Below, piece after piece: positions 2,109 through 31,625 of a stretch of DNA of 64,000 nucleotides. The notes below the pieces were generated by a model. It did not search any database, had not been told where the DNA came from, and worked only from the letters and a program-made list of their open reading frames with translations. Positions within the stretch are counted from its first letter, which is position 1. Every line of letters begins with the position of its first letter. Made by a program: the position numbers and the translations under genes. Source of the DNA: Candidatus Spongiisociaceae bacterium (GTDB lineage: Bacteria > Actinomycetota > Acidimicrobiia > Spongiisociales > Spongiisociaceae); NCBI GenBank assembly GCA_965219685.1, contig CBDCOH010000002.1, forward strand, positions 1,696,001 to 1,760,000, written 5' to 3'.

Positions 2109-2173
2109 CCCCGGTTCTTCATGGATTGGGCGATGCGACACCATTCCCGTCGGCGCCACATGTCCGACCGCGT

Positions 2174-3222: not shown

Positions 3223-3244
3223 GACACCACCCCATCCTCGCTCC

Positions 3245-4076: not shown

Positions 4077-4078
4077 AC

Positions 4079-6621: not shown

Positions 6622-6945
6622 TCACCGTCGAGATTCTCTCAGCGCCTGTGTCAAGGCCGGCCCGTCAGTTGATGGACGTACCTTCCTAAGCGGCCACTCG
6701 CGCCAGTCCTGCGAGTGCGCTCGCCAAGAGGATCCGTCGCGGCGTTGGCAGCGCACCTGCGGGAGCACCGGGCTCGCCACGACCACCGTGAGACGCTGGG
6801 CCCGGCTGTTGGCGACGTTCAGCCGATTGAGGCTGTAGAGAGATTCCATCCCTCTGAGCACCTTGTCAGCCGAACCTGTCTCCATCGAAGAGATCGGTAT
6901 CGCCGCCTGCTGGTCCTGGAACCCTCAGACCGCGCCGATGTTACG
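6622..6945 (-). pseudogene. Remnant of the C-terminus of an SF1 (DNA2/NAM7-type) helicase-nuclease
   Basis: Minus frame reads NIGAV*GFQDQQAAIPISSMETGSADKVLRGMESLYSLNRLNVANSRAQ, a decayed GTVDKFQGQE...NRLNVA.SRA with an in-frame stop. Confidence 0.65.
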
Positions 6946-6989
6946 AGCCTTAAGCATCCCCCAATCTCGATCACTGCGATTCACACTTA

Positions 6990-7952: not shown

Positions 7953-7956
7953 TTAG

Positions 7957-9683: not shown

Positions 9684-9865
9684 CTTAGAGTGTGGGGAAG
9701 AAACGACCAAGACTCTTTATGAGGTCACATCCGCTGCGGACTAGCTGCCCATGCCCCGACCGGTGCCCGGGCGGCAGATCTGGGGTAAGGCACGACAGCA
9801 TATTCCTGGTGGGTCAGACCGGGCCCCGGTCCCATCCTAGAGCGTCCGCCGCGGCGGACGCTCGG

Positions 9866-10804: not shown

Positions 10805-11928
10805 GCTTCCCCGACACCGGCAGTGGTCACCGTGCCACGCTGCTCACGCAGGAACTGGACTGCCGGGGGAATCAGGAGGGCCAGCACCAGGAGCGCCTGG
10901 ATGACGTCGACCACCTTGCGATCCACGCCGGTCGCAGCCAGAAAACCTGCGCCCGTGCGGAGGGCGGCGAAAACTATGGCCACCGGAACGCATAGCAGCG
11001 GCCTGGTCCGAGCCACCAGCGCAACCAGCAGACCCTGCCACCCGATCTCGTTCGAGAACCCCGCTGTGAGACGGGCGCTGGAGGCGCCACCCGCCATCAT
11101 CATCGCTCCTGCAAAGCCCGCCAGCGCCCCCGACGCGAAGAGCGCGGCGCTCCCCGCCCGGGCCACCGCCACGCCGGCCTGCTGAGCAACGTTGGGGCCG
11201 GCGCCGAGCAGCCGCAGCTTGAACCCCGGCACGGTTCTCGCCAGCAGGAATGCCACCGCCCCGGCCCCTGCCAGCGCGACGAGGAAGCCTGCGTGGAACT
11301 CGTTGCCGAACACCGTGACGACCGGCAGGCGGACCGAGGCGGGCAGGGATGCACTGGTCACGGCCTGGCTGGGCCGGTTCGGATCCAAATCACGGAGGAA
11401 CCAGTCGGTCGTGATCGCGAACCCGACCACCTGGAAGGCAACGAACACCAGCAGGAGGGTGGAGATGACTTCCGGCACTCCTCTGCGGAATCGCATAAGC
11501 GCCGCCAGTCCGGCATAGGCGCCGCCCGTGACCGCCGCAAGCACCAGGCCACCTACGAGCAGGAGCGGGCCCGGACCGGGAAGCCTGGTCCCCACCAGAG
11601 CCATGGCCACGGCCCCGATCAGCAACTGGCCTTCCTGGCCTATGTTGAAGAAACCTGCCTTCACCCCGATCACCATGCCGAGGGCGACCAGCAGCATCGG
11701 TGCGGCGTGTGCGAGGGTGTTGCCCCACCGCCCCGGAGCGAGGAAGGCTCCATCCAGCAGGGCTCCCAGCATCCCGGTCCACGACTGCCCTGTGGCAGCC
11801 ACCAGAGCGGCCGACAGGACCAGGGCCCCGCCGAGACTCAGCAGGTAGATAAATGCTGTCTCGCTCCTGCGGCCGATACCGGACCCGGACTGGGTCTGGA
11901 CGGGAGGCTCTACCGTACCGGGCATCAC
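10801..11928 (-). CDS. ABC transporter permease (nucleoside/BMP type)
   Basis: FNIGQEGQ, EVISTLLL, G..GLLVAL.A; multiple TM segments. Confidence 0.9.
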   Translation of the reverse strand: MMPGTVEPPVQTQSGSGIGRRSETAFIYLLSLGGALVLSAALVAATGQSWTGMLGALLDGAFLAPGRWGNTLAHAAPMLLVALGMVIGVKAGFFNIGQEGQLLIGAVAMALVGTRLPGPGPLLLVGGLVLAAVTGGAYAGLAALMRFRRGVPEVISTLLLVFVAFQVVGFAITTDWFLRDLDPNRPSQAVTSASLPASVRLPVVTVFGNEFHAGFLVALAGAGAVAFLLARTVPGFKLRLLGAGPNVAQQAGVAVARAGSAALFASGALAGFAGAMMMAGGASSARLTAGFSNEIGWQGLLVALVARTRPLLCVPVAIVFAALRTGAGFLAATGVDRKVVDVIQALLVLALLIPPAVQFLREQRGTVTTAGVGEA

Positions 11929-13508
11929 GGCGGTGCTTCCGTTGCATCTTTGCCTCCCATCAGGAGGCCCAATTGCTGCATGTCGAGGCCCGGACGGGCC
12001 AGTTCACCGGAGATCGCTCCCCTGTGAATCACTGCAACCCGGTCCGCCAGGGAGATGATCTCTCGGAGGTCGGTGGAAAGCAGCAGTATCCCGATGCCTT
12101 CCCCGGCGGCATGCCGGAGGCGGTCGGCCACGTACTCGATCGCTCCCACGTCGAGACCGCGCGTCGGCTGGTGGGCTACCACCACCTTGGGCGAGGCCGA
12201 AAGGGCCCGGGCCACGACCACCCTCTGCTGGTTCCCGCCCGAGAGACGATCCAGTGGAGTGTCGGGATCCGGCGTGCGGATGCCGTACTCACGGATCAAC
12301 TCGAGGGCGTTGGCGCGGATGGCTTCCCGGCGAAGAAGCCCACGGCGCTGCATGCGGTCCAAGATCGGGATCATCAGGTTCTCGGCCACGGTCATGCCCA
12401 GCACGCACCCCGACCGGTGACGATCGGCCGGGATCACCGCTACCCCCGCCGCTGCCATGGCTCCCGCCTCACCGGTGGGAACCGGCTCGCCTCCCATCGC
12501 CACCACACCTTGATCGAGCCGGAGGAGTCCGGCCATCACATCTGACACCGCGGTCTGCCCGTTTCCCTCCACACCGGCGACGCCCACGATCTCACCCTCC
12601 CGGACGTCGATGGACAGGCTGTCGAGCAGGACACTTCCGTCCTCCGCCTTCACGCACGCCTGCGCGATGCGGAGCACAGGCGGGTCGGGCACTGCGCAGG
12701 GATCCTGCTCCATCCGGTCTGCCGCCGGACTCCTGCCCTCCGGGTCGCCGGCCGCGGTCACCGCGAGCAGGGGGACGGGGCGTCCCACCATCGCCCTGGC
12801 CAACGCAGGGACATCGGAGGCGGCGGTCGCGGTCCGGTGGGTGACCCGTCCGTGGTGCATCACGGTTATCCGGTCGGTGGCCCTCAGGATCTCGTCGAGT
12901 TTGTGGCTGACCAGCGCCACGGCCCACCCTTCGGTCCGGGCTCCTTCACGGAGCACCTCGAACAGTTGCTCGGACTCGGCGGGGGTGAGGGCGGAGGTCG
13001 GCTCGTCGAGGAGGATGATGCGGGGTTCGTGCGACAGGCACTTGATTATCTCCACGCGCTGGCGGATCCCGCTCGAGAGGTCGCGGACGGGTGCGTCGGG
13101 ATCCACATCCAGGCCGTAACGCTCGGAGATGTCCCGGATGCGGCTCTTCGTCGAGTCGGGATCGAAGGGGCCGGTCTCCCCGAGCGCGACGTTCTCCCAT
13201 ACGGTCAGGGCATCGACCAGGCTGTAGTGCTGGTGCACCATGCCGATGCCTTGTTCGGCCGCACCCACCGGATCGCCCATGCGGCACGGGATCCCGTCGA
13301 TCCTCACGGCGCCGGAGTCGGGAAGGGCAAGCCCGAAGATCAGACGCATGAGCGTGGACTTGCCGGCGCCGTTCTCCCCCAGGACTCCGTGGACCTCACC
13401 GGCCCGCAGTTCCAGGTCGACTCCATCGCATGCCACGACGTTCCCGAACCGCTTGGTCATCCCCAGGAGTTCGACAACCGGCTGATCGAGCCTAGGGGCG
13501 GTCGTCAT
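11925..13508 (-). CDS. ABC transporter ATP-binding protein (tandem ATPase domains)
   Basis: GENGAGKST, LDEPT, LSGGNQQ, PTRGLD; start placed at ATG 13508 (MTTAPR) after a GAGG. Confidence 0.92.
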   Translation of the reverse strand: MTTAPRLDQPVVELLGMTKRFGNVVACDGVDLELRAGEVHGVLGENGAGKSTLMRLIFGLALPDSGAVRIDGIPCRMGDPVGAAEQGIGMVHQHYSLVDALTVWENVALGETGPFDPDSTKSRIRDISERYGLDVDPDAPVRDLSSGIRQRVEIIKCLSHEPRIILLDEPTSALTPAESEQLFEVLREGARTEGWAVALVSHKLDEILRATDRITVMHHGRVTHRTATAASDVPALARAMVGRPVPLLAVTAAGDPEGRSPAADRMEQDPCAVPDPPVLRIAQACVKAEDGSVLLDSLSIDVREGEIVGVAGVEGNGQTAVSDVMAGLLRLDQGVVAMGGEPVPTGEAGAMAAAGVAVIPADRHRSGCVLGMTVAENLMIPILDRMQRRGLLRREAIRANALELIREYGIRTPDPDTPLDRLSGGNQQRVVVARALSASPKVVVAHQPTRGLDVGAIEYVADRLRHAAGEGIGILLLSTDLREIISLADRVAVIHRGAISGELARPGLDMQQLGLLMGGKDATEAPP

Positions 13509-13543
13509 CCAGGCCTCTTCGTACCGGCTTCGCCGGCACCCTC

Positions 13544-13803
13544 CTAGGCGAATGGTTCCAAGCCATGCGACTGCCGCGAGGCACACTGGACCATCGGTAC
13601 ACAACGATGCTCAGCACAGCTGACACCTGAATGTGCCTGTGTCTCCTTGCGCGGGTCCCCAGTCTTCGGTCGGCGGCGCGCCCACCGGCGCTCAAGTGAC
13701 ACCCGGACAGCGCATTCGCGGCCGCACACGGATACGATCTAGCGCCAACCACCGATCACCAACTACCGACTGCCGACCAGGAGACTAGGAACTAGTCATC
13801 TAG
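13544..13803 (+). mobile_element. MITE-like dispersed element, copy A
   Basis: Starts CTAGGCGAATGGTTCCAAG, ends GGAACTAGTCATCTAG; internal similarity to the copies at 22335, 36495 and 52145. The right CTAG overlaps the BMP gene stop. Confidence 0.7.
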
Positions 13804-15029
13804 AAACCGTACGCCTCGGACAGGATCTCGTAGATCTGGTCTGCGAAGTCCCCGGCTCCGATCCGCGCGTTCAGATCCTCGAGCGCCTGCTGCTGATCGG
13901 AGGTGGGGTCGCAAAGGTTGGCGCCGACCTCCGGATCCACTCCCACCGTGAACCTCCGTGCGCCGCCCTCCTCGGCGGTTCCGGCCAGGATCTCGTCGAA
14001 GATCGGAGCCAGGTAGTCACCGGCGTCGAACATGACCTCGAGGTCGTAGGTGAGGTCTTCCCTCTCGCATCCTGCCGATGATCCGGCGGTCATGACGATG
14101 AGCCCGTCATCGTTCGCCAGCCGGACGATCGGTTCGTGCGCCCCCCCCAGGAACGGGTAGACCGCCCCGACTCCCTCGGCGACCGCGTTGTTGTACGCCT
14201 CGGTAGCCCCGGCGGTGTTGTTGAAGTCGAACGCGAAGTTGCCGGTCGGCACGTAGATTATCTCGAACTCCTCGTCCACCAGGCGCAGCCCGAACTCGAA
14301 CGCCAGGAACGACTCCTTCTCGAAGTTCAGGTCGCAACATCCGAGGAACACGGCGCGATCGGACCCACGTTCCAGCAACAGCAGCCCGGTGGCGTACCCG
14401 GCGGAGATACCGAGTTCCGCACCGCTGTCCGCGCTCCGGAGGAGGCCCGGCGTGTCCTGGTAGCCGGAGCCGCAGTTGCAGTACCAGAAGATCTGGTCGT
14501 GCTCGAGGAAGAGGTCCTCGTTACCGTCCGCTAGGTTGCTCGACCCGATGGCGATGATGTCGGCGCCCTGAGCCACCACGTTCTCGAGTTCGGCGCGGGC
14601 GTTGGCCGGGTCGACCTGGTCGACGATGAGCGGGGGCCGGTAACCCGCCTCGTCCGAGATCGACTCGACCCGTTCCACCAGGGCCTGGTAGTAGGCACCG
14701 TCGTCACGCGCGCCCTCGGTCACGACCGCGATACGGACCTCACCGTCGCCGTTGAAGTCCGCCGCGCCCCAGTCAGGTGCTGGTTCCTCGGCTACGGACA
14801 CCTCCGTGGTGCCGGGTTCCGGGTCTGTCACCTCGGCGCTCTCTCCACCGCTGGAGTCGGGAGTCTCAGCTTCGGCGGCACCGATTGGCGCGGTCGTGTC
14901 CGTGACGATCACCTGCCCATCCGTCGTGTCGGTGGGCTGGATGGCCTCCGGATCGGTATCGGCGCAGGCGGCCACCACGACCGCCAGGACGACCAAGCCG
15001 GGCAAGAACCGACTGGAGATAACTTTCAT
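13800..15029 (-). CDS. BMP-family ABC substrate-binding lipoprotein
   Basis: Lipobox VAAC, acidic linker, D.AY.Q..., GADII; heads the ABC operon. Confidence 0.85.
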   Translation of the reverse strand: MKVISSRFLPGLVVLAVVVAACADTDPEAIQPTDTTDGQVIVTDTTAPIGAAEAETPDSSGGESAEVTDPEPGTTEVSVAEEPAPDWGAADFNGDGEVRIAVVTEGARDDGAYYQALVERVESISDEAGYRPPLIVDQVDPANARAELENVVAQGADIIAIGSSNLADGNEDLFLEHDQIFWYCNCGSGYQDTPGLLRSADSGAELGISAGYATGLLLLERGSDRAVFLGCCDLNFEKESFLAFEFGLRLVDEEFEIIYVPTGNFAFDFNNTAGATEAYNNAVAEGVGAVYPFLGGAHEPIVRLANDDGLIVMTAGSSAGCEREDLTYDLEVMFDAGDYLAPIFDEILAGTAEEGGARRFTVGVDPEVGANLCDPTSDQQQALEDLNARIGAGDFADQIYEILSEAYGF

Positions 15030-15287
15030 CGCACCGTACTCCCGTCGCAATACCGGGGCAGACGCCCGACTCTCGGACCCTGTCCCGTGCTCCGCAAGCC
15101 CTCCCGTGGTCTTCGGCGTCCGCTCCCCGGCCCTTCCGCCGACAGACCGTCCGTCGTTGTCTTGCGGACCGAATAATCCCGTCTCCAGACTAATGCCCCT
15201 GTGCCCCGCCGAATCCCTGCGCGGATCGACTCCTGGCCCCGCAAGAGCCCGAGTCCGGGGTACGGCTCCTTGCCCGACGCAGCCCGG

Positions 15288-16073
15288 TCAACGGCCTCGG
15301 GGCTTGCCGTGCACCGCTTCGTAGAGACGTCGGACCATCGCGGTCGGATCGGCTGCTCCCCAGGTGTTGCGCCCGAATGCGATGCCCGACGCGCCCGCGG
15401 CGACCACTTCCCGGGCATAGTCGACTGCCTCGTCCTCGGAGTCCCTCCTGGGACCGCCCAGGACGAACAGGGGAACCTCGCAGTTCTCGATCACGCGGCC
15501 GAGGTCATCGACATCCGGTGGCGCCATCGTCTTGACCGCGTCCGCCCCGATCTCCACGCAGACCCGCGCGCCCCAGGCGATGTGCTCGGTGTCCCAAGGC
15601 ACCTCCCTGGACCACCCACCCGGGATCGACTCGGCGACGACGGGCATCCCGATCTTCTCGCATTCGCCCACCAGAGCGGCGAGGCGCCTCAGCGACCGAA
15701 CCTCGTCGTTCATGCCGGGGAAAGCCATCAGGACCACCGCGTCGGCGCCGATGAGCGCCGCCTGCTCGGCACCGTGCATCAGGTGCATGTCGTCACCCTC
15801 TTGAGGGTCGCCCATCAGGGTCACCGCTCCGTCCACCCGCAGCACCAAGCCGCACTGGGCGAACGCCCCCGGGTATCTGCGGGCGATATGCCAGGTGGCC
15901 AGGATCCCATCCGGTCCACCCTCGGCTACGTGCTCCACCGCATCGAGAGCGGGACCCTGCCCGGTCGCCGACTGCATGTCGATCGCCACCAGCAGGGCTC
16001 GGCCGTCTGCACCCATGAACCGGGATGAGCGCCTGACCTTGCCCGCGCCGACCGCCGAGGAGACGTATTCCAT
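15288..16073 (-). CDS. Class I aldolase (DhnA/LsrF family)
   Basis: LVAID, GADAV, E.GADAVKT (Schiff-base Lys), VLGG, GA.G.AFGRN.W. Confidence 0.85.
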   Translation of the reverse strand: MEYVSSAVGAGKVRRSSRFMGADGRALLVAIDMQSATGQGPALDAVEHVAEGGPDGILATWHIARRYPGAFAQCGLVLRVDGAVTLMGDPQEGDDMHLMHGAEQAALIGADAVVLMAFPGMNDEVRSLRRLAALVGECEKIGMPVVAESIPGGWSREVPWDTEHIAWGARVCVEIGADAVKTMAPPDVDDLGRVIENCEVPLFVLGGPRRDSEDEAVDYAREVVAAGASGIAFGRNTWGAADPTAMVRRLYEAVHGKPRGR

Positions 16074-16110
16074 CACTGCTTTCCTCCTACCTGGCCGAGG
16101 TGTCCCAACG

Positions 16111-17412
16111 CTAACCCCGCCCGAGTCGCGACTCAGCCTGGTCTCCCAGGGAGATGAAACGCCGGAGGCCTTCTTCGTACACCGTCGAGCACTCCGGATC
16201 GAAGGTGGTTACGGGTGGTGTCGGCCAGTCACCCACCATGCCGTCTCCGGGCCGCGGCCACCACCCTACCGCCGCCCCGGCTGCCAGAGCACCTCCGTAC
16301 GCAGCCATCTCGTCGCAGGCCGGGACATCGACGGGCACACCCAGCACCGCCGCCTTGATCGAGGTCCACAGCCTGCTGCGGGACGGCCCTCCCGAGCTGA
16401 CCAGGCTGCGCAGTTCGAGGCCCTGGCGGGCCAGTTCGATGGCTATGTGAGCCAGTCCGTATGCCGTCGACTCGAGGATGGCCCTCGCTACCACCGCCGC
16501 CCCGGAGTCCTGGCTGAGGCCGACGATCTCGGCACTGAGCCGTGGCTCCCATCTCGGCGCCCGCTCGCCCTCGAGAAACGGCAGTACCAGCACCCCTCCC
16601 GAACCCGGCTCAACCGCCCCGGCGGCATCCAGAAGGTCGGTGACCGGTCGGCCGGTCACGCCCGCCCACCAGTCCAGCATGGCGCCGTGGGAGGCGACCG
16701 GGCCGCCGACGATGTGGATACCCGGAACATGGCTGGGCATCCCGTATTCGGCCGCCCATCCGTGGTCACGAGACGCTGCCGCCACCCCGAGACCCCCGGT
16801 CGTGCCCCCGGGGTCGAAGCCGCGCCCGGGCGTGTCGATGGCGCCGGCCCAGGCGGTCAGGTAGGCATCGTTCGATCCGGGCGCCAGCACCATGCCTTCA
16901 GGGAGGCCGTTGCTGCCCGAGGTCAACCCGATCGGAGAACCAACCGGTACAGGGTCCCCGAAGCCGGGCAGCGGTTCCAGCCCGGGCCAGACACTCTGGA
17001 TGTGCGCCCGGCCACCTAGGCACGACAGCAGGAAGTCCCACATCTGCCGGGGCCGGGTTCCCGGTCCCAGTCGCTCCTCGAGCAGCGCGGCGTGCGCCTT
17101 CTGCTGCCCGGCGAAGTCCGCCGACGCGCCCACCGGATGGCGGTAGGTGAACGCCAGATCCCCACCGGCAGCCACGGTTGTCGGGCCGTGGCCGCCCACA
17201 CCCAGTGCCAGGGGGGCTGCACACGGGAGCCTCATTACCGCTTCGCCCAGTCCATCGAGCCATACCGCCGGATCGGCCTGCCCCACCGGCAGCCGCGGAG
17301 AGCAGCGGTAGGCAGCCCTGGATGTGGCGACGACCCGTCCTTCGCTATCGACGGCCACGGCCCGGGCCGAACCGGTACCGATGTCCACACCGGCAACCAC
17401 GTGGGAGGCCAT
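16111..17412 (-). CDS. FGGY-family carbohydrate kinase (xylulokinase-like)
   Basis: GVDIGTGSARA, LPFLEGERAP.W, RAILES.AY, GG.SRS.LW..IKA; TGATG coupling at 17410-17414. Confidence 0.85.
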   Translation of the reverse strand: MASHVVAGVDIGTGSARAVAVDSEGRVVATSRAAYRCSPRLPVGQADPAVWLDGLGEAVMRLPCAAPLALGVGGHGPTTVAAGGDLAFTYRHPVGASADFAGQQKAHAALLEERLGPGTRPRQMWDFLLSCLGGRAHIQSVWPGLEPLPGFGDPVPVGSPIGLTSGSNGLPEGMVLAPGSNDAYLTAWAGAIDTPGRGFDPGGTTGGLGVAAASRDHGWAAEYGMPSHVPGIHIVGGPVASHGAMLDWWAGVTGRPVTDLLDAAGAVEPGSGGVLVLPFLEGERAPRWEPRLSAEIVGLSQDSGAAVVARAILESTAYGLAHIAIELARQGLELRSLVSSGGPSRSRLWTSIKAAVLGVPVDVPACDEMAAYGGALAAGAAVGWWPRPGDGMVGDWPTPPVTTFDPECSTVYEEGLRRFISLGDQAESRLGRG

Positions 17413-20808: not shown

Positions 20809-22221
20809 TCACTCGACCACGAACGACACCCCATCCACCAGCTGCGTCATCCTCCCGAGGAACAGGCTGCCCTTGGCAACGATCATGGCCCTGTCCACCT
20901 CTCCCCTGCGCAGCGCCTGCTGTGCATGGCCCAGGTAAGGAACTCCGGCGGGGATATGGCCTTGCGTCGGTGCGAAACCGGGCATGCCGCGCTCGGATAC
21001 GAACCGGTCGATGTCTCCTCTGGGGATCTCGCCCCGCAGCACCGCCATGGCGGCCAATGTCCGGTAGTTGGTACGGGGAACGTCGCCGCTCCCTCCCGGT
21101 ACGGTGATCTCGGGGTTGTGCATCTCCACCGCATACCGATCGATGTCGGTCATCCCGAGGCCGGCCCGGACCAGCGGCTCGACCACCAACGCCTCGTAGA
21201 CGGCGCGCGGGGACGACCCGGCGCCGATCGGGTGCTTACCGGTCAGGTCGAGCCGCAGCCGCATGCCGTCTCCGTCGGCGGGGCCGACCAGGAAAGCCAT
21301 GGAGGCCAGGCAGTCCTCCATGACCGGTACGCCGTTGCGGAGGTGGGCGGCGAACTTCATGCCGAGTTTGGCCTGCGAACCGCCGCCCAGGACCAGGACG
21401 TAGTCGTACAGTCCCGCGGCGATCATCGCCCCGGCCGAGATCAAAGCATGGACCGGAGCGGCGCAGAAGGCCTTGACATCCGAACCGGTGGCGTTCACGC
21501 ATCCGACCACTTCCCCGACAGCCTTGGACAGGCTGCCGCCACCCCGCTGGTAGCGGTCCCCTACCGCCTCCTCACCGCTGTTGAGCAGGTAGTCGACCCG
21601 GGACGCCGCCAGGTTGCCCCTCCTCAGGAGATCGGAAACGACCAGGACCGCGGTAGCTTTGCAGACCAGGTTCTCGAGCAGAACCGGCGCCGACAGCGAC
21701 TCATCCTGCTCGTGGGCGGTACGGATGAACCCTGCCACGCGGCCCCCGTGGTATAGCCGGAGGCCGGTGCCACCGTCCACGACTGACCTCAACTCAGAGG
21801 GACCGACCCCGACTATCCGGTCGGTCCGGTGGGGGAAGTCACCGATCTCCGCCCTGGCCTGCGCAGCCAGTTCCTCATCGATGGTGAGCAGATCGAAGTC
21901 GTCGCACGACTTCATGAGGCCGTAGAGCGCGGCCTGGGTGATCATCCGCCCGAAGGATCCGGAGGGTCCGGCTGACGGAACCGGATTCCGGTACCAGGGC
22001 CGGGGGATGGAATCCAGTTGATCGGGCTGGAGGTTGCCGATGAAGACCTGGTTGGGAGGGTACCGGACCACCTCTTCCCAGGGTCGCAGGGCCTCGGTCA
22101 TCGAGGCAAGAAGCGACGGGTCCCTTTCGATCTCTCGGACGGGCTTCGATCCGTATCGCACGAGGTCGGGGGCGTGGGCCAGCGCGTAGGACGTGTTGAG
22201 GATGGCGGGTTCCCGTATCAA
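20809..22221 (-). CDS. grdC: Glycine/sarcosine/betaine reductase component C subunit beta (FabH-like fold)
   Basis: LAHAPD, LLENLVCKAT, EEA.GD.YQRGGG...KA.GE, ATGSD...FCAAP, AKLGM, E.HNPEIT.P.G.GDVP..NY, GFAPTQGHIP, KGSLFLGRMT...DG.SF; TTG start after GGAG. Confidence 0.9.
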   Translation of the reverse strand: MIREPAILNTSYALAHAPDLVRYGSKPVREIERDPSLLASMTEALRPWEEVVRYPPNQVFIGNLQPDQLDSIPRPWYRNPVPSAGPSGSFGRMITQAALYGLMKSCDDFDLLTIDEELAAQARAEIGDFPHRTDRIVGVGPSELRSVVDGGTGLRLYHGGRVAGFIRTAHEQDESLSAPVLLENLVCKATAVLVVSDLLRRGNLAASRVDYLLNSGEEAVGDRYQRGGGSLSKAVGEVVGCVNATGSDVKAFCAAPVHALISAGAMIAAGLYDYVLVLGGGSQAKLGMKFAAHLRNGVPVMEDCLASMAFLVGPADGDGMRLRLDLTGKHPIGAGSSPRAVYEALVVEPLVRAGLGMTDIDRYAVEMHNPEITVPGGSGDVPRTNYRTLAAMAVLRGEIPRGDIDRFVSERGMPGFAPTQGHIPAGVPYLGHAQQALRRGEVDRAMIVAKGSLFLGRMTQLVDGVSFVVE

Positions 22222-22334
22222 AGTGCAGTCTCCATGGTCACGGGACACGCCAATACACGGGTCCGCGGATACTCGGAGCCCGAAGGGTAGTGGCAGCCCG
22301 TGCAGGCACCGGCCGCCGCCGGATCGGCGATGCG

Positions 22335-22596
22335 CTAGATGACTAGTTCCTAGTCGGTAGTCTATAGTTTCTAGTTGGGGATCGGTGGTTAACGTTAATT
22401 CGGATCGTTTACCATCGTACATAGCACTGTTTGAGTCTCGCGTTTGCGCAGTGGGGTGGCTCTTCACGAAACGGCAGCCCGTAGTCCGAGTGTCCAGGAA
22501 CAGGGGCACACCAGTCACAGATGCGTTGTACAGCGTTGTGTAGCGATCGTAGAGTTCGGTCGTTTCCGGTCAGATCCCTTGGAACTACTCGTCTAG
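22335..22596 (-). mobile_element. MITE-like dispersed element, copy B
   Basis: Ends CTAGATGACTAGTTCC / GGAACTACTCGTCTAG (14/16 inverted match); body closely similar to 52145-52405; right CTAG overlaps the EamA stop codon. Confidence 0.8.
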
Positions 22597-23643: not shown

Positions 23644-24015
23644 TCATCCACGAAACGCCGGACGTAGGGGATAGTCCTCCTGCCGGCCCGTATCGCCGGG
23701 CTGGATGACGAAGTCCCGCCGATCACGGTAGAGGCCGGCGCGGTTGAGCACGTAGTTGACCCCCGACTTCATGTCGTCCCAGTGGGTCATCAACCAGTAC
23801 TTGTGGTCTCCGATGAACAGATAGGTGTTGTTCATTCGGAAGAAGCGGCCGGTCACGCCCTCGCCTGCGCGGAACCGCTCGCAGACCGCCTCGAGAAGCT
23901 CCTGCTGCCCGTCCTTCTCGGAGAGCACGTACTCGTGAGGCCAGGTCTCCCGGTAGGTAACCGCTTCCCGCCAGGGAGCACGGGAGATGAGGTCGGTCAA
24001 CGTGGATGCCGTCAC
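23644..24015 (-). CDS. Hypothetical protein
   Basis: Aromatic-rich, globular-looking ORF (APWREAVTYRETWPHEY...YL..GD.KYW.M); 4-nt overlap with the macro-domain gene. Confidence 0.65.
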   Translation of the reverse strand: MTASTLTDLISRAPWREAVTYRETWPHEYVLSEKDGQQELLEAVCERFRAGEGVTGRFFRMNNTYLFIGDHKYWLMTHWDDMKSGVNYVLNRAGLYRDRRDFVIQPGDTGRQEDYPLRPAFRG

Positions 24016-24575
24016 CTCGAGTCACTCCCTGTTGCCTGTCCGGCCGCGATCGCCCACTCCAAGCCCCGCCGGAATGCGTCTGCGGTCCGGCCGTCGTAGC
24101 CCACCAACCGGATCTCTTGCAACACGCCAGGATGCTGCTGGACCCATCGGATGCACTCCGAGGCTATCACCTCGGTAGCGGCCTCGATCGGATAGCCGAA
24201 CACCCCCGTCGAGATGGCCGGCATGGCCACTGTCTCAGCGCCGATCCGCGCCGAGGCGTCGAGAGCCGCCAGAACGGCCTCCCGCAGTAGAGCCGGGTTG
24301 TCCTGCCCCTCCCTGTAGCGGGGACCCACGACGTGCACGACCCATGTCGCCTGCAACCCGCCACCGACAGTGACCGCCGCTTCGCCGGGCGGGATCGGGC
24401 CGTGCTCCGCTACCCACCGGTCGGAGTCCGCCACGAACTCCTCACCTCCGACCGCCGCCAGAGCAGCCGCCAGCCCGCCGCCGTGACGGAGGTACTCGTT
24501 GGCAGCGTTGACGATCACATCGACGCATGCCGCCGTGAGGTCCCCCTGGGACACCTTGACTACCTGATCCTCCAA
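24012..24575 (-). CDS. Macro domain protein (ADP-ribose/O-acetyl-ADP-ribose hydrolase-like)
   Basis: GDLT...VD.IVNAAN..L.HGGG.A, VHVVGP, MPAISTGVFGYP; TTG start after GGAGAAGGA. Confidence 0.9.
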   Translation of the reverse strand: MEDQVVKVSQGDLTAACVDVIVNAANEYLRHGGGLAAALAAVGGEEFVADSDRWVAEHGPIPPGEAAVTVGGGLQATWVVHVVGPRYREGQDNPALLREAVLAALDASARIGAETVAMPAISTGVFGYPIEAATEVIASECIRWVQQHPGVLQEIRLVGYDGRTADAFRRGLEWAIAAGQATGSDSR

Positions 24576-24804
24576 CTGTCCTTCTCCTCCTCGTGTGTTG
24601 CGGCTCGATGTTCCACCACCGATCCGGACCTTACCGAGACCATGTGACACATCACGCGCGCAGCCTCTGCGATCTTCGCGGCCCGAACCGCCGCGGTGTG
24701 TCACGCGCCTCCGATCGCGGGTCCGGGCGCCAGGAACCGGGGCATCCGATGGGTAGGGTGATGGTCTGCATCAGCACGCCGAGACGGGAGTTGGGCGAGG
24801 CAGG

Positions 24805-26424
24805 ATGGCGAAGCGGCTCAAGTACTGGGGATGGGGATACGAAGGCCTAGGACTCTCGACCTCGGACCGGGATGCCCTGCTCCACACCCTCGCAACCGAG
24901 TACGGCGTCACCGCCAGGGGAACCGGGAAGATACCCGCTCTCGACGGTATGGCCCTTCCCCCTAGCCGTCTCGAACCGCCGGCACGCCTCGCATCCATTT
25001 GCACGCAGGAGCCGTACGAGCGGGTCCTGCACAGCTTCGGCCAGTCCCAGCCCGACTCGATCCGCATCTTCGCTGGTGACTTCGGCCACGCTCCCGATGT
25101 GGTCGCCTACCCGCGGGACGAGACCGACGTGGCGGCGCTGCTGGAGTGGGCGGGTGAGCGAGGGTCTGCACTGATTCCGTTCGGCGGCGGGTCGTCGGTG
25201 GTGGGCGGGGTGACACCGGACGTGGCTGACGGTTTCGCCGGAGTCGTCACCATGGACATGAGCCGCATGAACCGGGTTCTGGAGGTGGACACGCTGTCGC
25301 GGGCCGCGCGCATCCAGGGCGGGGCACGCGGACCCGAACTCGAGGCTGCGCTCAAACCCCACGGGGTGACGCTCCGCCACTTCCCCCAGTCCTTCCAGCA
25401 CTCCACCTTGGGAGGCTGGATCGCCACCCGGTCGGGCGGCCACTTCGCCACCCTCTACACCCACATCGACGACCTGGTCGAGAACGTATCCATGGTCACG
25501 CCCGCGGGCCGGATGGAGTCGCGGCGGCTGCCGGGGTCGGGAGCCGGTCCGAGTCCCGACCGCCTCGTCATCGGCTCCGAGGGTGCCCTGGGAATCATCA
25601 CCGAAGCCTGGGTGAGGGTACAGGGGCGGGTGAGGTTCAAGGCGACTGCCGGATTCCGGTTCCCGGACTTCATCCAGGCCGCCGGAGCGGTGCGGGCGAT
25701 CGCCCAAGCCGGCCTGTTCCCCGCCAACGTGAGAATCGTGGACGGGGTCGAACTGCACGTGAACGGCGCCGGGGATGGTTCGTTCACCCTGATGGTGGTT
25801 TCCTTCGAGTCCGCCGACCGCCCCGTCGACACGTGGATGGACCTCGCGGAGGAGTGCGCCCTGGATCAGGGCGGGGTGCCGGATGCCGACTGGCGGACCA
25901 ATCCGGACGCCCACCTGACCGGCGCCGCGGGCGCCTGGCGTGACGCCTTCATCAGAATGCCCTACAACCGGGAGGTCCTCACCCCGCTCGGCATCATCTC
26001 GGACACCTTCGAGTCGTCCATCACCTGGGACCGATTCGAGTCGTTCTACCGCAACGTCAGCCAGGCCACCCAGGATGTCATCCGCGAGGCGACCGGCCGG
26101 GAAGGCGCCGTGTCGTGCCGGTTCAGCCACGCCTATCCGGACGGTCCCGCCCCCTACTTCGCCTTCCACTGCGCCGCCGACCCGCGCTCGATGCTCGATC
26201 AATGGTGGGAGATCAAGCGCGCCGCCTCCGACGCCGTGCTCGACAACGGCGGCACCATCACCCACCACCACGCCGTCGGCCGCGATCACCAACCGTGGTA
26301 CGAGAAACAACGACCGCCGCTGTTCGGAGACGTCCTGGCCCGTGCCAAGACACACCTGGACCCGAAAGGAATCCTCAACCCCGGCGTGCTGCTACGTGGA
26401 CCCATGGCCGCAGTCGTTCCGTAG
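24805..26424 (+). CDS. FAD-binding oxidoreductase (alkyl-DHAP synthase-like, VAO family)
   Basis: PFGGGSSVVGG, HFPQSF..STLGGWIATRSGG, GSEG.LGIITE, ITHHHAVG, LDP.GILNPG. Confidence 0.9.
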   Translation: MAKRLKYWGWGYEGLGLSTSDRDALLHTLATEYGVTARGTGKIPALDGMALPPSRLEPPARLASICTQEPYERVLHSFGQSQPDSIRIFAGDFGHAPDVVAYPRDETDVAALLEWAGERGSALIPFGGGSSVVGGVTPDVADGFAGVVTMDMSRMNRVLEVDTLSRAARIQGGARGPELEAALKPHGVTLRHFPQSFQHSTLGGWIATRSGGHFATLYTHIDDLVENVSMVTPAGRMESRRLPGSGAGPSPDRLVIGSEGALGIITEAWVRVQGRVRFKATAGFRFPDFIQAAGAVRAIAQAGLFPANVRIVDGVELHVNGAGDGSFTLMVVSFESADRPVDTWMDLAEECALDQGGVPDADWRTNPDAHLTGAAGAWRDAFIRMPYNREVLTPLGIISDTFESSITWDRFESFYRNVSQATQDVIREATGREGAVSCRFSHAYPDGPAPYFAFHCAADPRSMLDQWWEIKRAASDAVLDNGGTITHHHAVGRDHQPWYEKQRPPLFGDVLARAKTHLDPKGILNPGVLLRGPMAAVVP

Positions 26425-26438
26425 GATTGAGAAACGCG

Positions 26439-27200
26439 CTACCGCTTAGCGTCGCCGGAGCATTGATTCTCGAATCCGGGACCCTGAGCGCGCCAGGTAC
26501 TCGTGTCCCAATTGAGGGCATAGTTGTCGTCCGCGATGTTCCTCGCGTAGGCTATTGATCCACAACTCTCACACTCCGCAGCAAACGTCCTCTGATGCTC
26601 GCTACTGCTAATGCGCGCTTCTCGGAACTGCCCGAGCCGATGACCCAGCTTTCCTGCTTTTGCTATGACATCGCCCGGAACGGGGCTAGGGACAGGCCTC
26701 TTAAGCGGCGTACGTGTCTTCGGCTTAGGAACCGCAATGCGTCGCACGCGTCGTCCCGAGGGAGCGGACGAAGATGGACTACCGGTCTTGACGGACCCAC
26801 GGGGTGTTGGTGCTGGAGGGTTGGTGCGAGCTCCCTGCGGCATGGAAGGCCTTGAGGAGGGAGACCGAGACCTCGAAGCGGGTTCAGTGTGGACAGGGGG
26901 ATCCGATTCAGTGTGGATAGGGGGATCCGGCTCGGTTCGCGGCACCGCAGGAGGAGAGTCCACCTGGGGCGGAATCGGAGTCGGCGCCGGTGCTTCGGAT
27001 CTCTTCTGGCCTACACCCGGCCGAAGCCGGAACAGTCGGCGAGCCCATGAAGAGCGGCTCTCGCCCCGACGCTTATCTCGTCGGGCACGGTCTCCACGCA
27101 CTCTGCGGGTCGGGCCTTCGAGACCTTGTTCCAACTCCTCCGGGGTTGGAACGTAGAACTCATCGGCCTGTCGACGGGGGTCCGTATCTGTCACAACCAC
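26439..27200 (-). CDS. Pro/Arg-rich hypothetical protein with C-terminal His/Cys (putative Zn) domain
   Basis: Overlaps the Hsp70 stop; C-terminus GHRLGQF...CESCG...C; internal 24-bp tandem repeat at 26883-26930. Confidence 0.6.
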   Translation of the reverse strand: MVVTDTDPRRQADEFYVPTPEELEQGLEGPTRRVRGDRARRDKRRGESRSSWARRLFRLRPGVGQKRSEAPAPTPIPPQVDSPPAVPRTEPDPPIHTESDPPVHTEPASRSRSPSSRPSMPQGARTNPPAPTPRGSVKTGSPSSSAPSGRRVRRIAVPKPKTRTPLKRPVPSPVPGDVIAKAGKLGHRLGQFREARISSSEHQRTFAAECESCGSIAYARNIADDNYALNWDTSTWRAQGPGFENQCSGDAKR

Positions 27201-28516
27201 GTCTCCTGAGCGACTACTCCCAGACCATAGGCGACCGTAGTGAACGGCTCCCGCTCCCGTACCTTCTCTGCCCCGAACAGTCCCTCCAGCAACTCCACGA
27301 AAGCACCGAGCCGAGATGACCCCCCGGTGCGCAACACCGTCGTCACCTGATCGGGCTCGATCTTGGCCATTGAGAGAGCTTTCATAATCTGCGACTTGAC
27401 CGTCTTAATGTAGGGAGCGAGCATCAGGTCTAGTTCGGCTCGACTCAGGTCGATGGACAGGTCGCCCTGGGGAGGGTGAAACTCAATCGACGATCTCTCT
27501 GCGCTTGACAGTGCGATCTTGGCATTCTCGATGGCCTTGTAGAACCGAGGAGCTTGGCCTCCGGTAACCACAGACCTAACAAGAGCCCCGGCTCGGCGAT
27601 CCAACCGTTCGAGAGCGTTGAGAACACTGAACGTGTTTGGGTTAGTCAGCAAGTACTTGAACCTTTCCAGACTGGAAAGGCCCGTACTGAACCAGGCAGG
27701 GATCGCGTCATGCCACAGCCCGAGCCGCGGCGCTACTTTCGACTCGAAGATTATCCGATCGAACATAGAACCGCCTACCGCGGCGCCTTCCATGCTCAAC
27801 ACTTCTCCTTCGCCTCCTGAGATAGAGGTCACGGCCAGATCAAAGGTCCCCCCTCCAAAGTCAACCGCCACCATGTACCCATCCTCAAACACTTCGTCCA
27901 GTGCTGCGGCAACCGGCTCCGGATAGAGTTCTACATCGACGAAACCTGCTCTCCGTGCAGCGCGCATGAGACGAGTCTCTGCTAGGTGCTGGCGTTCATC
28001 GAACTGATCACCCGTGGAGCCGAAAAAGGCGATCGGGTGTCCAATCACTGCTCGGGTGACATCCGATCCGGTTTGGCGATCGGCTTGAGTTTTCAGGTGG
28101 GCAAGGACGACAGCGACAAGATCCTCCATCTCGAAGTCCTTCGCCCAGGAGTGGGTACTCTTGAACGTGTCGTCTGCCAGCTCACTCTTGACGTCACTCA
28201 TCAAGCGCGAATCAACACAGCCGCCACTCCGCTCGTACTGGCGACAATCCGTCTCATACCCGAACTTTCTGGTATAGGTCACGAGCGAACACCGCCGACA
28301 TACTGTACTCCGGCTACCGGTGATCGTAAACTGATCGATGGCTTGTTTCCCGGCCAATCGTAGTCCATCCCGATGTACGTAAACAGTTGATGGCAGAGAC
28401 GCGGGTAGTGGCTGATCAAGGTCGAAGTTCAATACCTCAACCCGGTCCCTGTAGGCGATCGAGATGGAACTGTTGGTTGTCCCGTAGTCGATTCCGTAAG
28501 CGAGGTCGCTTGTCAA
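27191..28516 (-). CDS. Hsp70-family ATPase (YegD-like, no substrate-binding domain)
   Basis: GIDYGTTNS, EPVAAA, VDFGGGTFD, E.AKIALS, TGGSS; 441 aa. Confidence 0.9.
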   Translation of the reverse strand: MTSDLAYGIDYGTTNSSISIAYRDRVEVLNFDLDQPLPASLPSTVYVHRDGLRLAGKQAIDQFTITGSRSTVCRRCSLVTYTRKFGYETDCRQYERSGGCVDSRLMSDVKSELADDTFKSTHSWAKDFEMEDLVAVVLAHLKTQADRQTGSDVTRAVIGHPIAFFGSTGDQFDERQHLAETRLMRAARRAGFVDVELYPEPVAAALDEVFEDGYMVAVDFGGGTFDLAVTSISGGEGEVLSMEGAAVGGSMFDRIIFESKVAPRLGLWHDAIPAWFSTGLSSLERFKYLLTNPNTFSVLNALERLDRRAGALVRSVVTGGQAPRFYKAIENAKIALSSAERSSIEFHPPQGDLSIDLSRAELDLMLAPYIKTVKSQIMKALSMAKIEPDQVTTVLRTGGSSRLGAFVELLEGLFGAEKVREREPFTTVAYGLGVVAQETWL

Positions 28517-31500
28517 TCCCCCACCACCAACGCTACCGCAAGTACACGGACCGAAATATCAGATCTCGTTCCCTGCAACTCTAATATCTTGGCATCACGA
28601 TCATCATTGAGCCTCAAGAGCCGACCTTGATTCTTATTAAGCCTACCCCGGATAGCCGGTAATATGCGTTTCTCCTTAACGGATCCCGTGGCATTTAATC
28701 TGTCGATCCGAGCGATGTCGTCTTCGATCTTTTGACACAAGCGCCTTTCCCGATCCTTGTAGATACGTTCCGTACGATCAAGTTCCTCTTCATACCATTT
28801 TGTGTGGAGATACTCCACCTTCGATCTTGATCTATAGTGGCTATCCGCCAGCTTGAGCTTGCTGGCCTCTAGTGCACTCCCAGCCCAACCCGGCAGATCA
28901 CTGGGTCGTGAGGGTTCCCCGATCTCCGGCATCTTCGTAATCTTAGACTCTTCCACGTCTAGGTCCTCACCCACTAGGTGCCGAACGAACTGTCCGAACC
29001 GAACCGGCCCATCCGCTTCGATCGCGTAGAAGATCTCTATGTGAGGGCCGCCCCAAACACCGACGGCGCGCCGTTGGCATGCCACTGCGGGACGCGATCC
29101 CATCGGAAGATCCACAATCGAATCGATCAGACTCTGGCCGAGCGCAAAGAACTCCAAGTCTTCACGTACGAGCGCCTCTCGATAGTCAAACACACCACGA
29201 TACGAACTCTTCTTGACACCCAGCCACCTCTGCAGTTGCTGAGACAGGTAGATTCCGACTCCCCCATCAGAGTGTTCAGTAACTCTGCCTCCAAAGTATC
29301 GGAGCGCAGCCCCGACGTAACTCTGCAGTTCCGACGGACCGGCCATCGTCCGCCGCTCAACCAACCTATTGGCTTCGTCCTGGCGGAAGATAGCCGGATC
29401 GAGGGCTAAGTGTCTCTTCTCCTTCTCCAGTTCCCGTGCCTCTCGAACCCTCCGTTCAAGATCGGACTCGAGGTCCTTCAACCTTCGATGTGAATCTCCT
29501 CCTTCATCGAAGGCTAGCCGCTTGAGATCGTCTTCCAAGTCTCCTAGAATGGGATCGAGCGAACCTACGGATTCTTCGAACAGGCGTATTCGTGTGTTGA
29601 GCACATCCAAGATTCTCTCTTCGATAGTACCTTTACAGGCAAAATTGTAGATTTGTATATCCTGCTTTTGCCCTATTCTATCCAAGCGACCGATTCGTTG
29701 CTCAATCTTCATTGGATTCCAAGGGAGATCATAGTTGAACATGACATGGGCAAATTGAAAATTACGGCCTTCACCTCCCGCTTCGGTGGCGACCAAGATC
29801 TGAGATCTTTCCCGAAAGCGGATTACGGCTTGGTCCTTCCTTTCTTGACTCAGGCTGCCGTTAAAAACTTCCACACGAAAACCATGGAAGGTGAGCATTT
29901 TTTCCAAGAACGATTGTGTTTCAAGAAACTGTGTGAAGATTATGACCTTCTCACCAAGTAGCATGTCTCGATGGAGAGTACGGAGGAGTTGACTCGCCTT
30001 GGAGTCACGTACGTTACCCAATCGCTTGACAAGGTCACGTAACACGGATATCTCAGCTTCGATCTTTCCGACTTCAGTTGATGCGATCCGATGTTCAGAC
30101 CTCTCCATCGCGGAACTAAGTTCTCGCGGGTCGGACCACGGTTCAAACTGTTCATCGATCTCAGAATTGTCGATCGCTTCCCCACTTAACTTCTGTGTAA
30201 GCTTTGCCATTCTCCTCTGGAGAGCTGACCTAACCGCATTGGAACTGGAGGACAGCATCTTCAGGTAAGTCACCATCAAGAAGCCGATCGCCTTCTGTTT
30301 TTTGGCTTGGGCTAGATTGTACTGCTCACGGAGATAGCTGCTCACTTCCTCATATAGTTCCATTTCCTCAGGATCTAACTCAACCACAACGAGTTCTGGG
30401 TGTCGTTGGGTGAAACCTCCGACATCAGACTTTCTGTTCCTAATCAGCGTACGCGCGAACGGATGCTGCCGATCCAATGCCTCTAGCGCAGAGTCTCTCG
30501 CGTCCGTCGTGAGTAGGTCAAGATCATATGGACGAAAGAACCGTTTCAAAGATGCACGGCGATGTGTATCTAAGGCATCCCATTGCTGAATGTCCTTAGC
30601 GATCTCGGCGAGATGAGGAAGGGACTGTCTGTCTTTTTCGTACTCTTCGAACGATTCACAGAGCCCCGGCTCCACCAACTCAATCAGAGAGTAAAGTTCG
30701 TAAGGATGCAGCTGCATTGGGGTCGCTGTGAGGAGCAACATCCCATCGACACCCTCCTTCAATTCATCAGCGAGTTGGTATCCGAGGGTGGAAGTAACGC
30801 GCTTACCGTGGAGACTACGGCGAACTCGGTGGGCCTCGTCGAAGATCACGATGTCCCATCCCGCCTCCGCGATCTGCTCGGCGTGATCCTCCCGGCGAGC
30901 CAAGCTAAGGGAGCAGATGACATTTCCATGCGTTCGCCAAGGGTTGCCACCCCGCCTAGCCAAGGACTTCAACGCAGGCCCGTCAAGGACCTCAAAGTCC
31001 TCGTTGAACTTGGAGCGGAGTTCCTGTTGCCACTGCCACTGGAGGGAAGCGGGAACGATTATCAATACTCGATCTATAGCGCGACGGGCTCTTAACTCCT
31101 TTACTATCAAGCCAGCCTCGATAGTCTTTCCCAAACCCACTTCGTCAGCCAGAATCATTCGTGGACGACTTTTGGACAGCACTTGGAGAGCTACCATAAC
31201 TTGGTGAAAGGCTGGCTCTATCCGGGCATTGGATAGACCGGCCAGGGTGTCATAGCGGTAGGCGTGTTGCAGGTACAGAGCTTGGACTCGAAGTCCATAG
31301 AGTTCGGCAGAACTGAATTCACCGGTCAGCAACGCTTGTTCCGGCTCGGGTGGTAGGAGCTCGATCGCCGACTCGCCGAGATACTCAGCACCGGAGGAGA
31401 ACATTACTTGGTATCCAAGGTACTGGTGATGCGCTATGACCACGCCCGTCTCTCCCCCGGTTGGGCGCCTGACTCTGTCACCTGGTTGTAACGCCTTCAT
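28513..31500 (-). CDS. SNF2-family helicase (RapA/HepA/DrmD-like)
   Basis: LADEVGLGKTIEAG, QWQ.EL, DEAH, LLLTATP, TEAGGEGRNFQ, DLPWNP..IEQRIGRLDRIGQ; C-terminal coiled coil; start placed at ATG 31500. Confidence 0.9.
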   Translation of the reverse strand: MKALQPGDRVRRPTGGETGVVIAHHQYLGYQVMFSSGAEYLGESAIELLPPEPEQALLTGEFSSAELYGLRVQALYLQHAYRYDTLAGLSNARIEPAFHQVMVALQVLSKSRPRMILADEVGLGKTIEAGLIVKELRARRAIDRVLIIVPASLQWQWQQELRSKFNEDFEVLDGPALKSLARRGGNPWRTHGNVICSLSLARREDHAEQIAEAGWDIVIFDEAHRVRRSLHGKRVTSTLGYQLADELKEGVDGMLLLTATPMQLHPYELYSLIELVEPGLCESFEEYEKDRQSLPHLAEIAKDIQQWDALDTHRRASLKRFFRPYDLDLLTTDARDSALEALDRQHPFARTLIRNRKSDVGGFTQRHPELVVVELDPEEMELYEEVSSYLREQYNLAQAKKQKAIGFLMVTYLKMLSSSSNAVRSALQRRMAKLTQKLSGEAIDNSEIDEQFEPWSDPRELSSAMERSEHRIASTEVGKIEAEISVLRDLVKRLGNVRDSKASQLLRTLHRDMLLGEKVIIFTQFLETQSFLEKMLTFHGFRVEVFNGSLSQERKDQAVIRFRERSQILVATEAGGEGRNFQFAHVMFNYDLPWNPMKIEQRIGRLDRIGQKQDIQIYNFACKGTIEERILDVLNTRIRLFEESVGSLDPILGDLEDDLKRLAFDEGGDSHRRLKDLESDLERRVREARELEKEKRHLALDPAIFRQDEANRLVERRTMAGPSELQSYVGAALRYFGGRVTEHSDGGVGIYLSQQLQRWLGVKKSSYRGVFDYREALVREDLEFFALGQSLIDSIVDLPMGSRPAVACQRRAVGVWGGPHIEIFYAIEADGPVRFGQFVRHLVGEDLDVEESKITKMPEIGEPSRPSDLPGWAGSALEASKLKLADSHYRSRSKVEYLHTKWYEEELDRTERIYKDRERRLCQKIEDDIARIDRLNATGSVKEKRILPAIRGRLNKNQGRLLRLNDDRDAKILELQGTRSDISVRVLAVALVVGD

Positions 31501-31625
31501 CTCACCTCTATCCATAGGCCGAGTCCATTGGCCACTCTGTACGTCCATGGCCGCATGCGACCCAGGAAACCAATGCGCGGTGTGGTCCCTCATTCCACAC
31601 GTGATCCGCCCCTTGGCAACCCGGC

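Follow-up and report, generated by a model that had tools for sequence, protein, structure and literature searches.

Within a 64,000-nt stretch of the genome of a Candidatus Spongiisociaceae bacterium (contig CBDCOH010000002.1, positions 1,696,001 to 1,760,000; the whole stretch is hereafter called the window), three minus-strand genes form a small low-GC cassette. They encode an SNF2 ATPase, an Hsp70-like ATPase made up of a nucleotide-binding domain (NBD) only, and a basic, proline-rich adaptor protein that ends in a zinc-type domain (Table 1). The genome carrying the window (G000) is 96.7% complete. The original prediction, made from the sequence alone, had described three overlapping genes with more A/T-ending codons than their flanks. 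The open reading frames (ORFs) confirm the overlaps, at 28513-28516 (ATTGA, with stop and start overlapping) and at 27191-27200. The codon bias is also real, as the GC content at third codon positions is 0.59, 0.64 and 0.56 in the three cassette genes, against 0.75-0.89 in eight flanking genes, and overall GC over 27500-31500 is 0.48-0.56 against 0.64-0.69 outside. The same prediction had correctly placed the cassette between metabolic genes: a FAD-linked oxidase, a macro-domain protein and EamA transporters lie on one flank, and an ABC ATPase, two permeases, a Bmp binding protein and a UbiD enzyme on the other. Domain scans of the insert found no methylase, DrmA/B or nuclease inside it, in agreement with what had been stated.

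The borders of the insert were provided by an empty site in the sister genome G007, the nearest relative of G000, recovered through a DNA search in the genus. In that genome both flanking genes are located on one contig, 182 bp apart. Homology in the alignment to this site ends at window position 26398 and restarts at 31599; therefore, nothing but the three genes and some 100 bp of upstream DNA lies in the 5.2-kb insert. No integrase or transposase was found at the insert borders, no direct or inverted repeats were found to bracket it, and no tRNA genes were found in the window, while promoter and terminator scans gave results at chance level. Lacking an integrase, a tRNA and terminal repeats, the insert was rejected as a prophage, an integrative and conjugative element or a transposon. 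It is a real, intact, horizontally acquired three-gene module.

Table 1 Coordinates of the insert, its genes and their domains (window positions)
Feature	Position	Strand	Basis or remark
Low-GC island, 5.2 kb	26399..31598	.	Three genes and ~100 bp upstream only; alignment to the G007 empty site
SNF2 ATPase, RapA/BrxHII architecture	28513..31500	-	995 aa from the ATG at 31500; longest ORF, to 31659, is 1048 aa
Single N-terminal small beta-barrel (Tudor/SH3-like) of the SNF2 protein	31378..31476	-	Predicted model, conserved block
C-terminal alpha+beta domain of the SNF2 protein, two very long helices	28516..29088	-	Predicted model, homologue conservation
NBD-only Hsp70-like ATPase, YegD-like length, 441 aa, TTG start	27191..28516	-	Pfam HSP70 5.1e-34
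Four-cysteine zinc-ribbon-like insert of the Hsp70 domain, then THSWA motif	28217..28300	-	Alignment conservation
Basic, Pro-rich, mostly disordered adaptor, 253 aa, GTG start	26439..27200	-	Isoelectric point 10.8, 14% proline
Short motif 1 of the adaptor, D-E-F-Y-V-P-T-P-E-E-L, residues 13-23	27132..27164	-	9/9 aligned homologues
C-terminal H-C-C-C zinc-type domain of the adaptor, residues 186-247	26460..26645	-	Invariant residues and predicted model
Tandem 24-nt duplication in the disordered region of the adaptor gene	26883..26930	.	Two copies, 92% identical

Proteins encoded by the insert

The SNF2 protein matched the Pfam families SNF2-rel_dom (2.3e-24), Helicase_C (2e-21) and RapA_C (PF12137; 1.2e-7, with 31.6 bits against a cut-off of 26.8). 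Its Walker A, DEAH and motif VI sequences were invariant in 9/9 sequences, and its best solved sequence relative was RapA (3.6e-63). The real start of the gene is most likely the ATG at 31500, which matches the end coordinate given in the original prediction, because homologues begin aligning only at residues 46-61 of the 1048-aa ORF, the 5′ extension of that ORF holds position 31599, where homology with the empty site restarts, and the Shine-Dalgarno sequence GAGGTGAG lies upstream of this ATG.

The full-length predicted model of this protein had a mean pLDDT (per-residue confidence score) of 68.7, with values of 35-69 in the middle region. Strands at residues 14-46 (pLDDT 74-85) are predicted to form one barrel, followed by helices; the corresponding block, GDRVR..GE.GVV...V.F, is conserved among homologues and the N-terminus had no Pfam match at E ≤ 10. 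Residues 810-1000 (pLDDT 83-92) were modelled as strands, two helices (878-943 and 952-982) and a last strand, and this C-terminal domain is conserved in 10/10 homologues. A Foldseek search with the model returned RapA structures as all top five matches, with 1007-1086 aligned columns (E of 4e-32 to 1e-23), and other remodellers matched the core of the model only, at 2e-14 or weaker.

The second protein had been described as an NBD-only Hsp70, and so it is: the Pfam HSP70 match covers the NBD only, the protein stops at the last NBD helix without a substrate-binding domain (SBD), and its solved relatives are Hsp70 NBDs only. It resembles YegD (PRK11678) in length class and has in it the nearest NCBIfam model, from which it differs in scoring 131 bits against a cut-off of 331, with residues 130-439 aligned. 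For DnaK/HscA (TIGR02350) it scores 114.7 bits against 822. The phosphate-1, phosphate-2 and adenosine motifs are invariant in the family, as are C73, C76, C91 and C100 together with T121-A125 (THSWA) in 20/20 members. The zinc insert formed by these cysteines is missing from the distant SNF2-linked Hsp70s of two loci, L017 and L112. In a HMMER alignment, the position of the Hsc70/BiP catalytic lysine was covered by this insert and fell on a zinc-ligand cysteine. PHROGs yielded no more than generic helicase and actin-fold matches, including a partition-protein PHROG at 9.7e-9, and the ESM Atlas gave only weak leads for the Hsp70-like protein and no usable match for the adaptor.

The adaptor matched no family in Pfam, NCBIfam, PADLOC or PHROGs. 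Three short conserved motifs precede a G-H...C-x2-C...C domain, in which G186, H187, C210, C213 and C247 were invariant in 9/9 sequences; the H..CxxC..C motif (H187, C210, C213, C247) that had been noticed at the end of the protein is thus invariant across homologues. A profile of the domain recovered only 64 representative proteins among 1.84 billion, and 19 of these reached an E-value of 1e-10 or lower. The predicted model of the domain (pLDDT 83.7) consists of a helix and four strands, for which Foldseek found no match at E ≤ 1e-3 (best 0.24). The best hits of the wide VIA search, a propeller blade (Z 5.7) and a WRKY domain (Z 4.8), were both below the noise level of 7-8, and Pfam at E ≤ 10 gave marginal zinc-ribbon matches only.

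Motif 1 of the adaptor was found by pattern search near residue 10 in 26 of the 49 zinc-domain family members of 520 aa or less, and it is present in the genomes G105 and G1027 too. The DnaK encoded by G000 itself (620 aa) has the NBD-to-SBD linker DVKD-ILLL-DVTP-L, to be compared with ADE-FYV-PTP-EEL in motif 1. The domains that follow the motifs vary among loci. The adaptor of L014 carries two copies of the zinc domain and the protein P0124 carries three, both with the short motifs retained, and the adaptor variant of L101 (3322-4407) keeps the three N-terminal motifs with the zinc domain swapped for a helical domain of about 230 aa that belongs to no family. As a side observation, the adaptor of L112 (G105) appears frameshifted: a stop codon closes a short ORF that carries DDIWIPTPEEL, and the sequence goes on as a charged Pro-rich ORF in a different frame.

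Linkage of the three genes

That the genes should co-occur elsewhere had been expected, and they do. The SNF2 and Hsp70-like genes are adjacent and collinear in all seven other carrier genomes of the family (7/7), and they are also adjacent at six further loci (L100, L101, L105, L112, L120 and L017). By reading of the ORFs, a third gene with the same cysteine-histidine domain follows in 7/7 family carriers. A tblastn search detected it in only 4/7, since the adaptor evolves about twice as fast as its partners, with identities of 50, 40, 37 and 27% against 78-48% for them. Natural fusions join the same parts: in two of the 64 zinc-domain proteins (P0161 and P0179), a linker connects an Hsp70 NBD to the zinc domain, and the fragment P0188 has an SNF2 C-terminus joined to an Hsp70 domain, which may be a frameshift artefact. 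A 613-aa open frame of G1027 was discarded as a fusion, as it represents upstream read-through into the SNF2 gene. Judged from these comparisons of sequence, the three genes are translationally coupled, always linked, co-evolving and moving between genomes as a unit.

Distribution and transfer of the cassette

Orthologues of the Hsp70-like gene (E of 1e-114 or better) were found in 8 of 41 related genomes, all from the same family (8/25 of its genomes), and the remaining 33, among them the non-carrier G028, had DnaK-level matches or none. In even samples of genomes, carriers numbered 3/401 at phylum level (E ≤ 1e-30) and 4/401 at class level; a family profile at E ≤ 1e-60 found 2/401. With the empty site of G007, these counts show that the cassette is accessory and not core. 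In the protein collection, at least 360 relatives were found at E ≤ 1e-20 among 8000 candidates scored. A contig scan with the whole Hsp70 alignment was dominated by DnaK (2 specific among 80 loci kept). Of the 12 loci recovered when metagenomes were scanned with the zinc-insert region, five had an adjacent SNF2 gene and the other seven belonged to a sister clade without SNF2. Members of this sister clade are found head-to-head with a PEPCK gene in L103, L104 and L106, and tail-to-tail with a coiled-coil vWA protein of 658-709 aa in L104 and L106, with an ORF of the same size in L102. The YegD/Hsp70-family genes of plasmids were only 26-28% identical to the Hsp70-like gene, and the two that were inspected both had no SNF2 neighbour.

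The GC content of the cassette is below that of its flanks in all eight family loci (0.40-0.57 against 0.62-0.75 in the hosts), and the insertion sites differ between genomes, except for the pair G000/G004, which share the same site. The G004 copy is pseudogenised, with its SNF2 and Hsp70 genes broken (one in-frame TGA and split ORFs). G001 is empty at the locus of the window (gap of about 400 bp) and has its own trio on another contig. Beside this second cassette is a rearranged fragment of the FAD-oxidase gene (L009:9312-9639), which is 82.7% identical to the gene of G000, 82% to that of G007 and 73.9% to that of G001 itself. As the fragment is closer to G000 than to G001's own gene, the cassette must have reached G001 from a donor similar to G000, with a piece of flanking chromosome attached.

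Maximum-likelihood trees of the SNF2 and Hsp70-like proteins from ten loci shared all starred clades: (G000,G001), (G021,L100), (G018,G010) and (G014,G009). Since these clades track host genera, movement of the cassette seems to take place mostly among close kin. On a separate point, its low GC despite a tree that follows the hosts could reflect either repeated transfer among kin or AT-richness that is maintained.

Relation to known systems

No described system was found to match the module, as the original prediction had supposed. PADLOC matched the helicase only: 52 helicase models hit the SNF2 protein, the best being BrxHI/BrxHII (1e-105, a model without a cut-off), followed by DrmD and HmaA. 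No model of PADLOC-DB 2.0 matched the second or third gene at E ≤ 0.01, and no system had all of its components matched. The SNF2 protein also scored below all NCBIfam cut-offs, with 358 bits against 576 for RapA (NF003426), 317 against 610 for DrmD (NF038317) and 248 against 500 for DpdE. A full-text literature search found no paper on an SNF2-Hsp70 module, and Hsp70 is not mentioned in the main texts, supplements aside, of PMC12839542, 10.1101/2025.09.15.676423 and 10.64898/2025.12.08.692795. The composition of the module, an SNF2 protein with an NBD-only Hsp70 and a zinc adaptor, thus matches no described system.

Among individual proteins, the SNF2 protein is like RapA (HepA of E. coli) in its whole-length fold match, its RapA_C domain and the long helices of its C-terminal alpha+beta domain. 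It differs from RapA in being accessory and mobile, in being always followed by an Hsp70-like gene and in its score. The N-terminus of RapA is a tandem pair of Tudor-like domains, according to PMC12839542; in contrast, one barrel is predicted here. In the same paper, BrxHII is described as starting with one Tudor domain, followed by the SNF2 core and a degenerate restriction endonuclease-like domain, and as having a coiled-coil insert in its C-terminal alpha+beta domain. By that description our model may be similar, with its predicted single barrel and C-terminal domain with two long helices on either side of the low-confidence middle. Unlike the loci of BrxHII, ArmA, DrmD and the helicases of DUF499 systems, however, the insert has no PglZ, BrxC, PglX, DUF499, YprA-type or methylase partner; its partners are the Hsp70-like ATPase and the adaptor instead.

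Two related helicases are reported to be essential to proven defence systems: ArmA of ARMADA (10.1101/2025.09.15.676423) and AsaH (10.64898/2025.12.08.692795). The feature by which ARMADA (ArmA) is defined is absent from the insert and its flanks. DISARM class 1 (DrmD) does not fit either, in view of the DrmD score above and the lack of DrmA/DrmB neighbours. A detached piece of a BREX, DISARM or DUF499 system was likewise rejected: PglZ (PF08665) and DUF499 had no match in the whole G000 genome, and the only MZB/DUF1998 match is at C2:2777744, about 1.05 Mb from the insert.

A parallel for the Hsp70-like protein is CnuD of the McrBC-derived type III CoCoNuT systems (PMC11090510), where an Hsp70-family ATPase has likewise joined an NTP-driven nucleic-acid motor in what is putatively a conflict system. 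As described in that paper, CnuD has an NBD and an SBD, degenerate ATPase motifs and a pairing with McrB GTPases and HEPN nucleases; its gene accompanies those of the McrB-like CnuB and the McrC-like CnuC. The protein encoded here, unlike CnuD, is NBD-only, has a zinc insert and conserved phosphate motifs, and is paired with an SNF2 protein. The insert contains no McrBC genes and no SBD, and McrB/McrC were found only at the distant locus L017, so that type III CoCoNuT is not what it encodes. Hsp70-like proteins are also reported in GTPase-centred conflict systems, and in these, as in CoCoNuT, they are not known to pair with SNF2 helicases.

Genomic neighbourhoods of related loci

Defence-type genes were found within about 3 kb of 7 of the 12 distinct loci, a raw count that is only suggestive. 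One of them is L014 (G014; 2949-16458), a larger low-GC island in which the trio, whose adaptor here has two zinc domains, is accompanied by a type II methylase and by a type III Mod/Res pair that is complete (REase_III 1e-178). This island also holds a 561-aa protein of no family, with a GC content of 0.35. L017 (498-5940) lacks an adaptor gene, and downstream of its SNF2-Hsp70 pair, in the same orientation, come the genes of a McrB-like AAA_5 protein (959 aa) and of McrC. The full trio of L120 (G1027; 1693-5952) is arranged head-to-head with a second SNF2 gene fused to NOV_C (1190 aa), followed by an NYN-domain gene. Other neighbours include a PDC-S14/DUF4357 gene directly before the SNF2 gene of L112 (8709-14934), an HNH endonuclease gene 1.4 kb downstream of the adaptor variant of L101, a type III-like methylase at L012 and Phd/PIN at L013.

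A proposed role in genetic conflict

We propose that the cassette is an operon of three genes that is complete in itself, spreads horizontally and encodes the parts of a single machine, and that conflict or defence is its most likely role, a reading that we hold with middling confidence. More precisely, we would guess at a remodelling system that is directed against invaders and has no nuclease. The role in conflict is suggested by the mobility of the cassette, the defence roles of related helicases and the defence-type neighbours. In this scheme, the SNF2 protein, which is of the double-stranded DNA translocase type and has intact ATPase motifs, would be the engine that tracks along DNA. The Hsp70-like NBD, without its substrate-binding half, would work as a nucleotide-gated switch or clamp. 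Gene order, translational coupling and the fusions place the adaptor where a normal Hsp70 has its SBD, and it may stand in for this missing half. From that placement and the resemblance to the DnaK linker, we suggest that motif 1 (FYVPTP) docks on the ATPase as a linker mimic, while the basic disordered tail and the zinc domain might bind the target, be it nucleic acid or an invader protein. Given that the cassette encodes neither a nuclease nor a methylase or toxin, the simplest output would be that protein-DNA complexes on foreign DNA, of a phage or a plasmid, are evicted or remodelled at the expense of ATP; handover of the target to host factors would be another.

Several observations weigh against this proposal. 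The cassette has no recognisable effector, be it a nuclease, a toxin or a membrane protein, and searches of plasmids (E ≤ 1e-30), phages (E ≤ 1e-20) and IMG/VR contigs gave no match to the module. The clades of the cassette tree follow host genera, and part of the history of the cassette may be vertical or restricted to close kin. Five of the 12 loci, this window included, sit among ordinary metabolic genes. Zinc-ribbon Hsp70s of the sister clade, 42-46% identical, occur without SNF2 (L102:1520-2788, L103:7217-9294, L104:164-5035 and L106:7193-12235). ATP hydrolysis by the Hsp70-like protein is uncertain, because the position of the catalytic lysine falls on a zinc-ligand cysteine. Finally, the suggested docking of motif 1 on this ATPase is drawn entirely from its likeness to the DnaK interdomain linker.

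Three other explanations deserve consideration. The closest solved whole-length relative of the SNF2 protein is RapA, the RNA-polymerase recycling factor, and its RapA_C match is above the Pfam cut-off. The cassette could hence be a horizontally spread accessory factor for transcription or DNA maintenance, in which a RapA-like motor frees stalled RNA polymerase or stuck host protein-DNA complexes with the help of the Hsp70-like protein and the adaptor, and no conflict with invaders is involved. The five loci with metabolic neighbours only and a tree that tracks host genera would suit such a factor, but housekeeping factors are rarely so patchy (4/401 in the class), low in GC, variably sited and pseudogenised. 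The protein also falls well short of the RapA equivalog cut-off (358 against 576 bits), and its N-terminus is modelled with one barrel and not the tandem pair of RapA. We therefore consider this explanation unlikely.

A somewhat lower probability goes to an auxiliary module that is inert alone and boosts or regulates a separate restriction-type system, such as restriction-modification (R-M), McrBC or a BREX-like system, located nearby or elsewhere, much as BrxHII, DrmD and ArmA are parts in the service of larger systems. According to PMC12839542 and 10.1101/2025.09.15.676423, every characterised helicase relative works in a multi-gene system with a methylase, and R-M (L014) or McrBC (L017) genes come directly after the module on the same strand. 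Yet no such partner is in reach in this window and at four other loci, the insert that moved is exactly three genes, and G000 has neither PglZ nor DUF499, its sole DUF1998/MZB helicase being about 1.05 Mb away. We regard as very unlikely that the genes are cargo or a remnant of a mobile element and serve the element itself, through maintenance, partition or anti-defence, and not the host. Foreign composition, repeated relocation and weak PHROG matches (phrog_23807 for the helicase, and the partition-protein PHROG at 9.7e-9 for the actin-fold ATPase) would be in line with this. However, the borders are devoid of integrase, transposase, tRNA, att-like repeats and other element genes, plasmid, phage and IMG/VR collections gave no match, and the flank carried into G001 points to recombination of chromosomal DNA rather than to an element.

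Returning to the proposed role in conflict, eukaryotic chromatin remodellers contain SNF2-Arp/actin modules. The pairing of an SNF2 protein with an actin/Hsp70-fold protein could be the bacterial counterpart of those modules, and the cassette a new class of nuclease-free immune or conflict machine: an SNF2 translocase governed by a "split Hsp70", in which the NBD has one gene and the client-binding half would be replaced by an exchangeable adaptor from another, plugged into the ATPase by a linker mimic and equipped with a new zinc fold as sensor. This extended version is speculative, and we doubt that it holds in full.

These findings have implications for the understanding of RapA/BrxHII-type SNF2 helicases, whose mechanism is unexplained although BREX type 3, DISARM, ARMADA and related defences depend on them. 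A motor that travels with just two partners, neither of which is a methylase or a nuclease, makes for a pared-down system in which the task of the motor itself can be addressed. If the proposed arrangement is true, an Hsp70 NBD that receives its client-binding half in trans from a swappable adaptor would be a new use of the Hsp70 switch. Meanwhile, the empty site, the carried flank and the pseudogenised copy provide a clean case of small defence-like cassettes spreading among kin without mobility genes.

Other genes near the insert

Two further genes were observed in DNA of native GC content, a few kb from the insert. One encodes a DUF5940 protein (569 aa) at window positions 20809-22518, and the other is the gene of the flanking macro-domain protein (230 aa), at 24012-24704.

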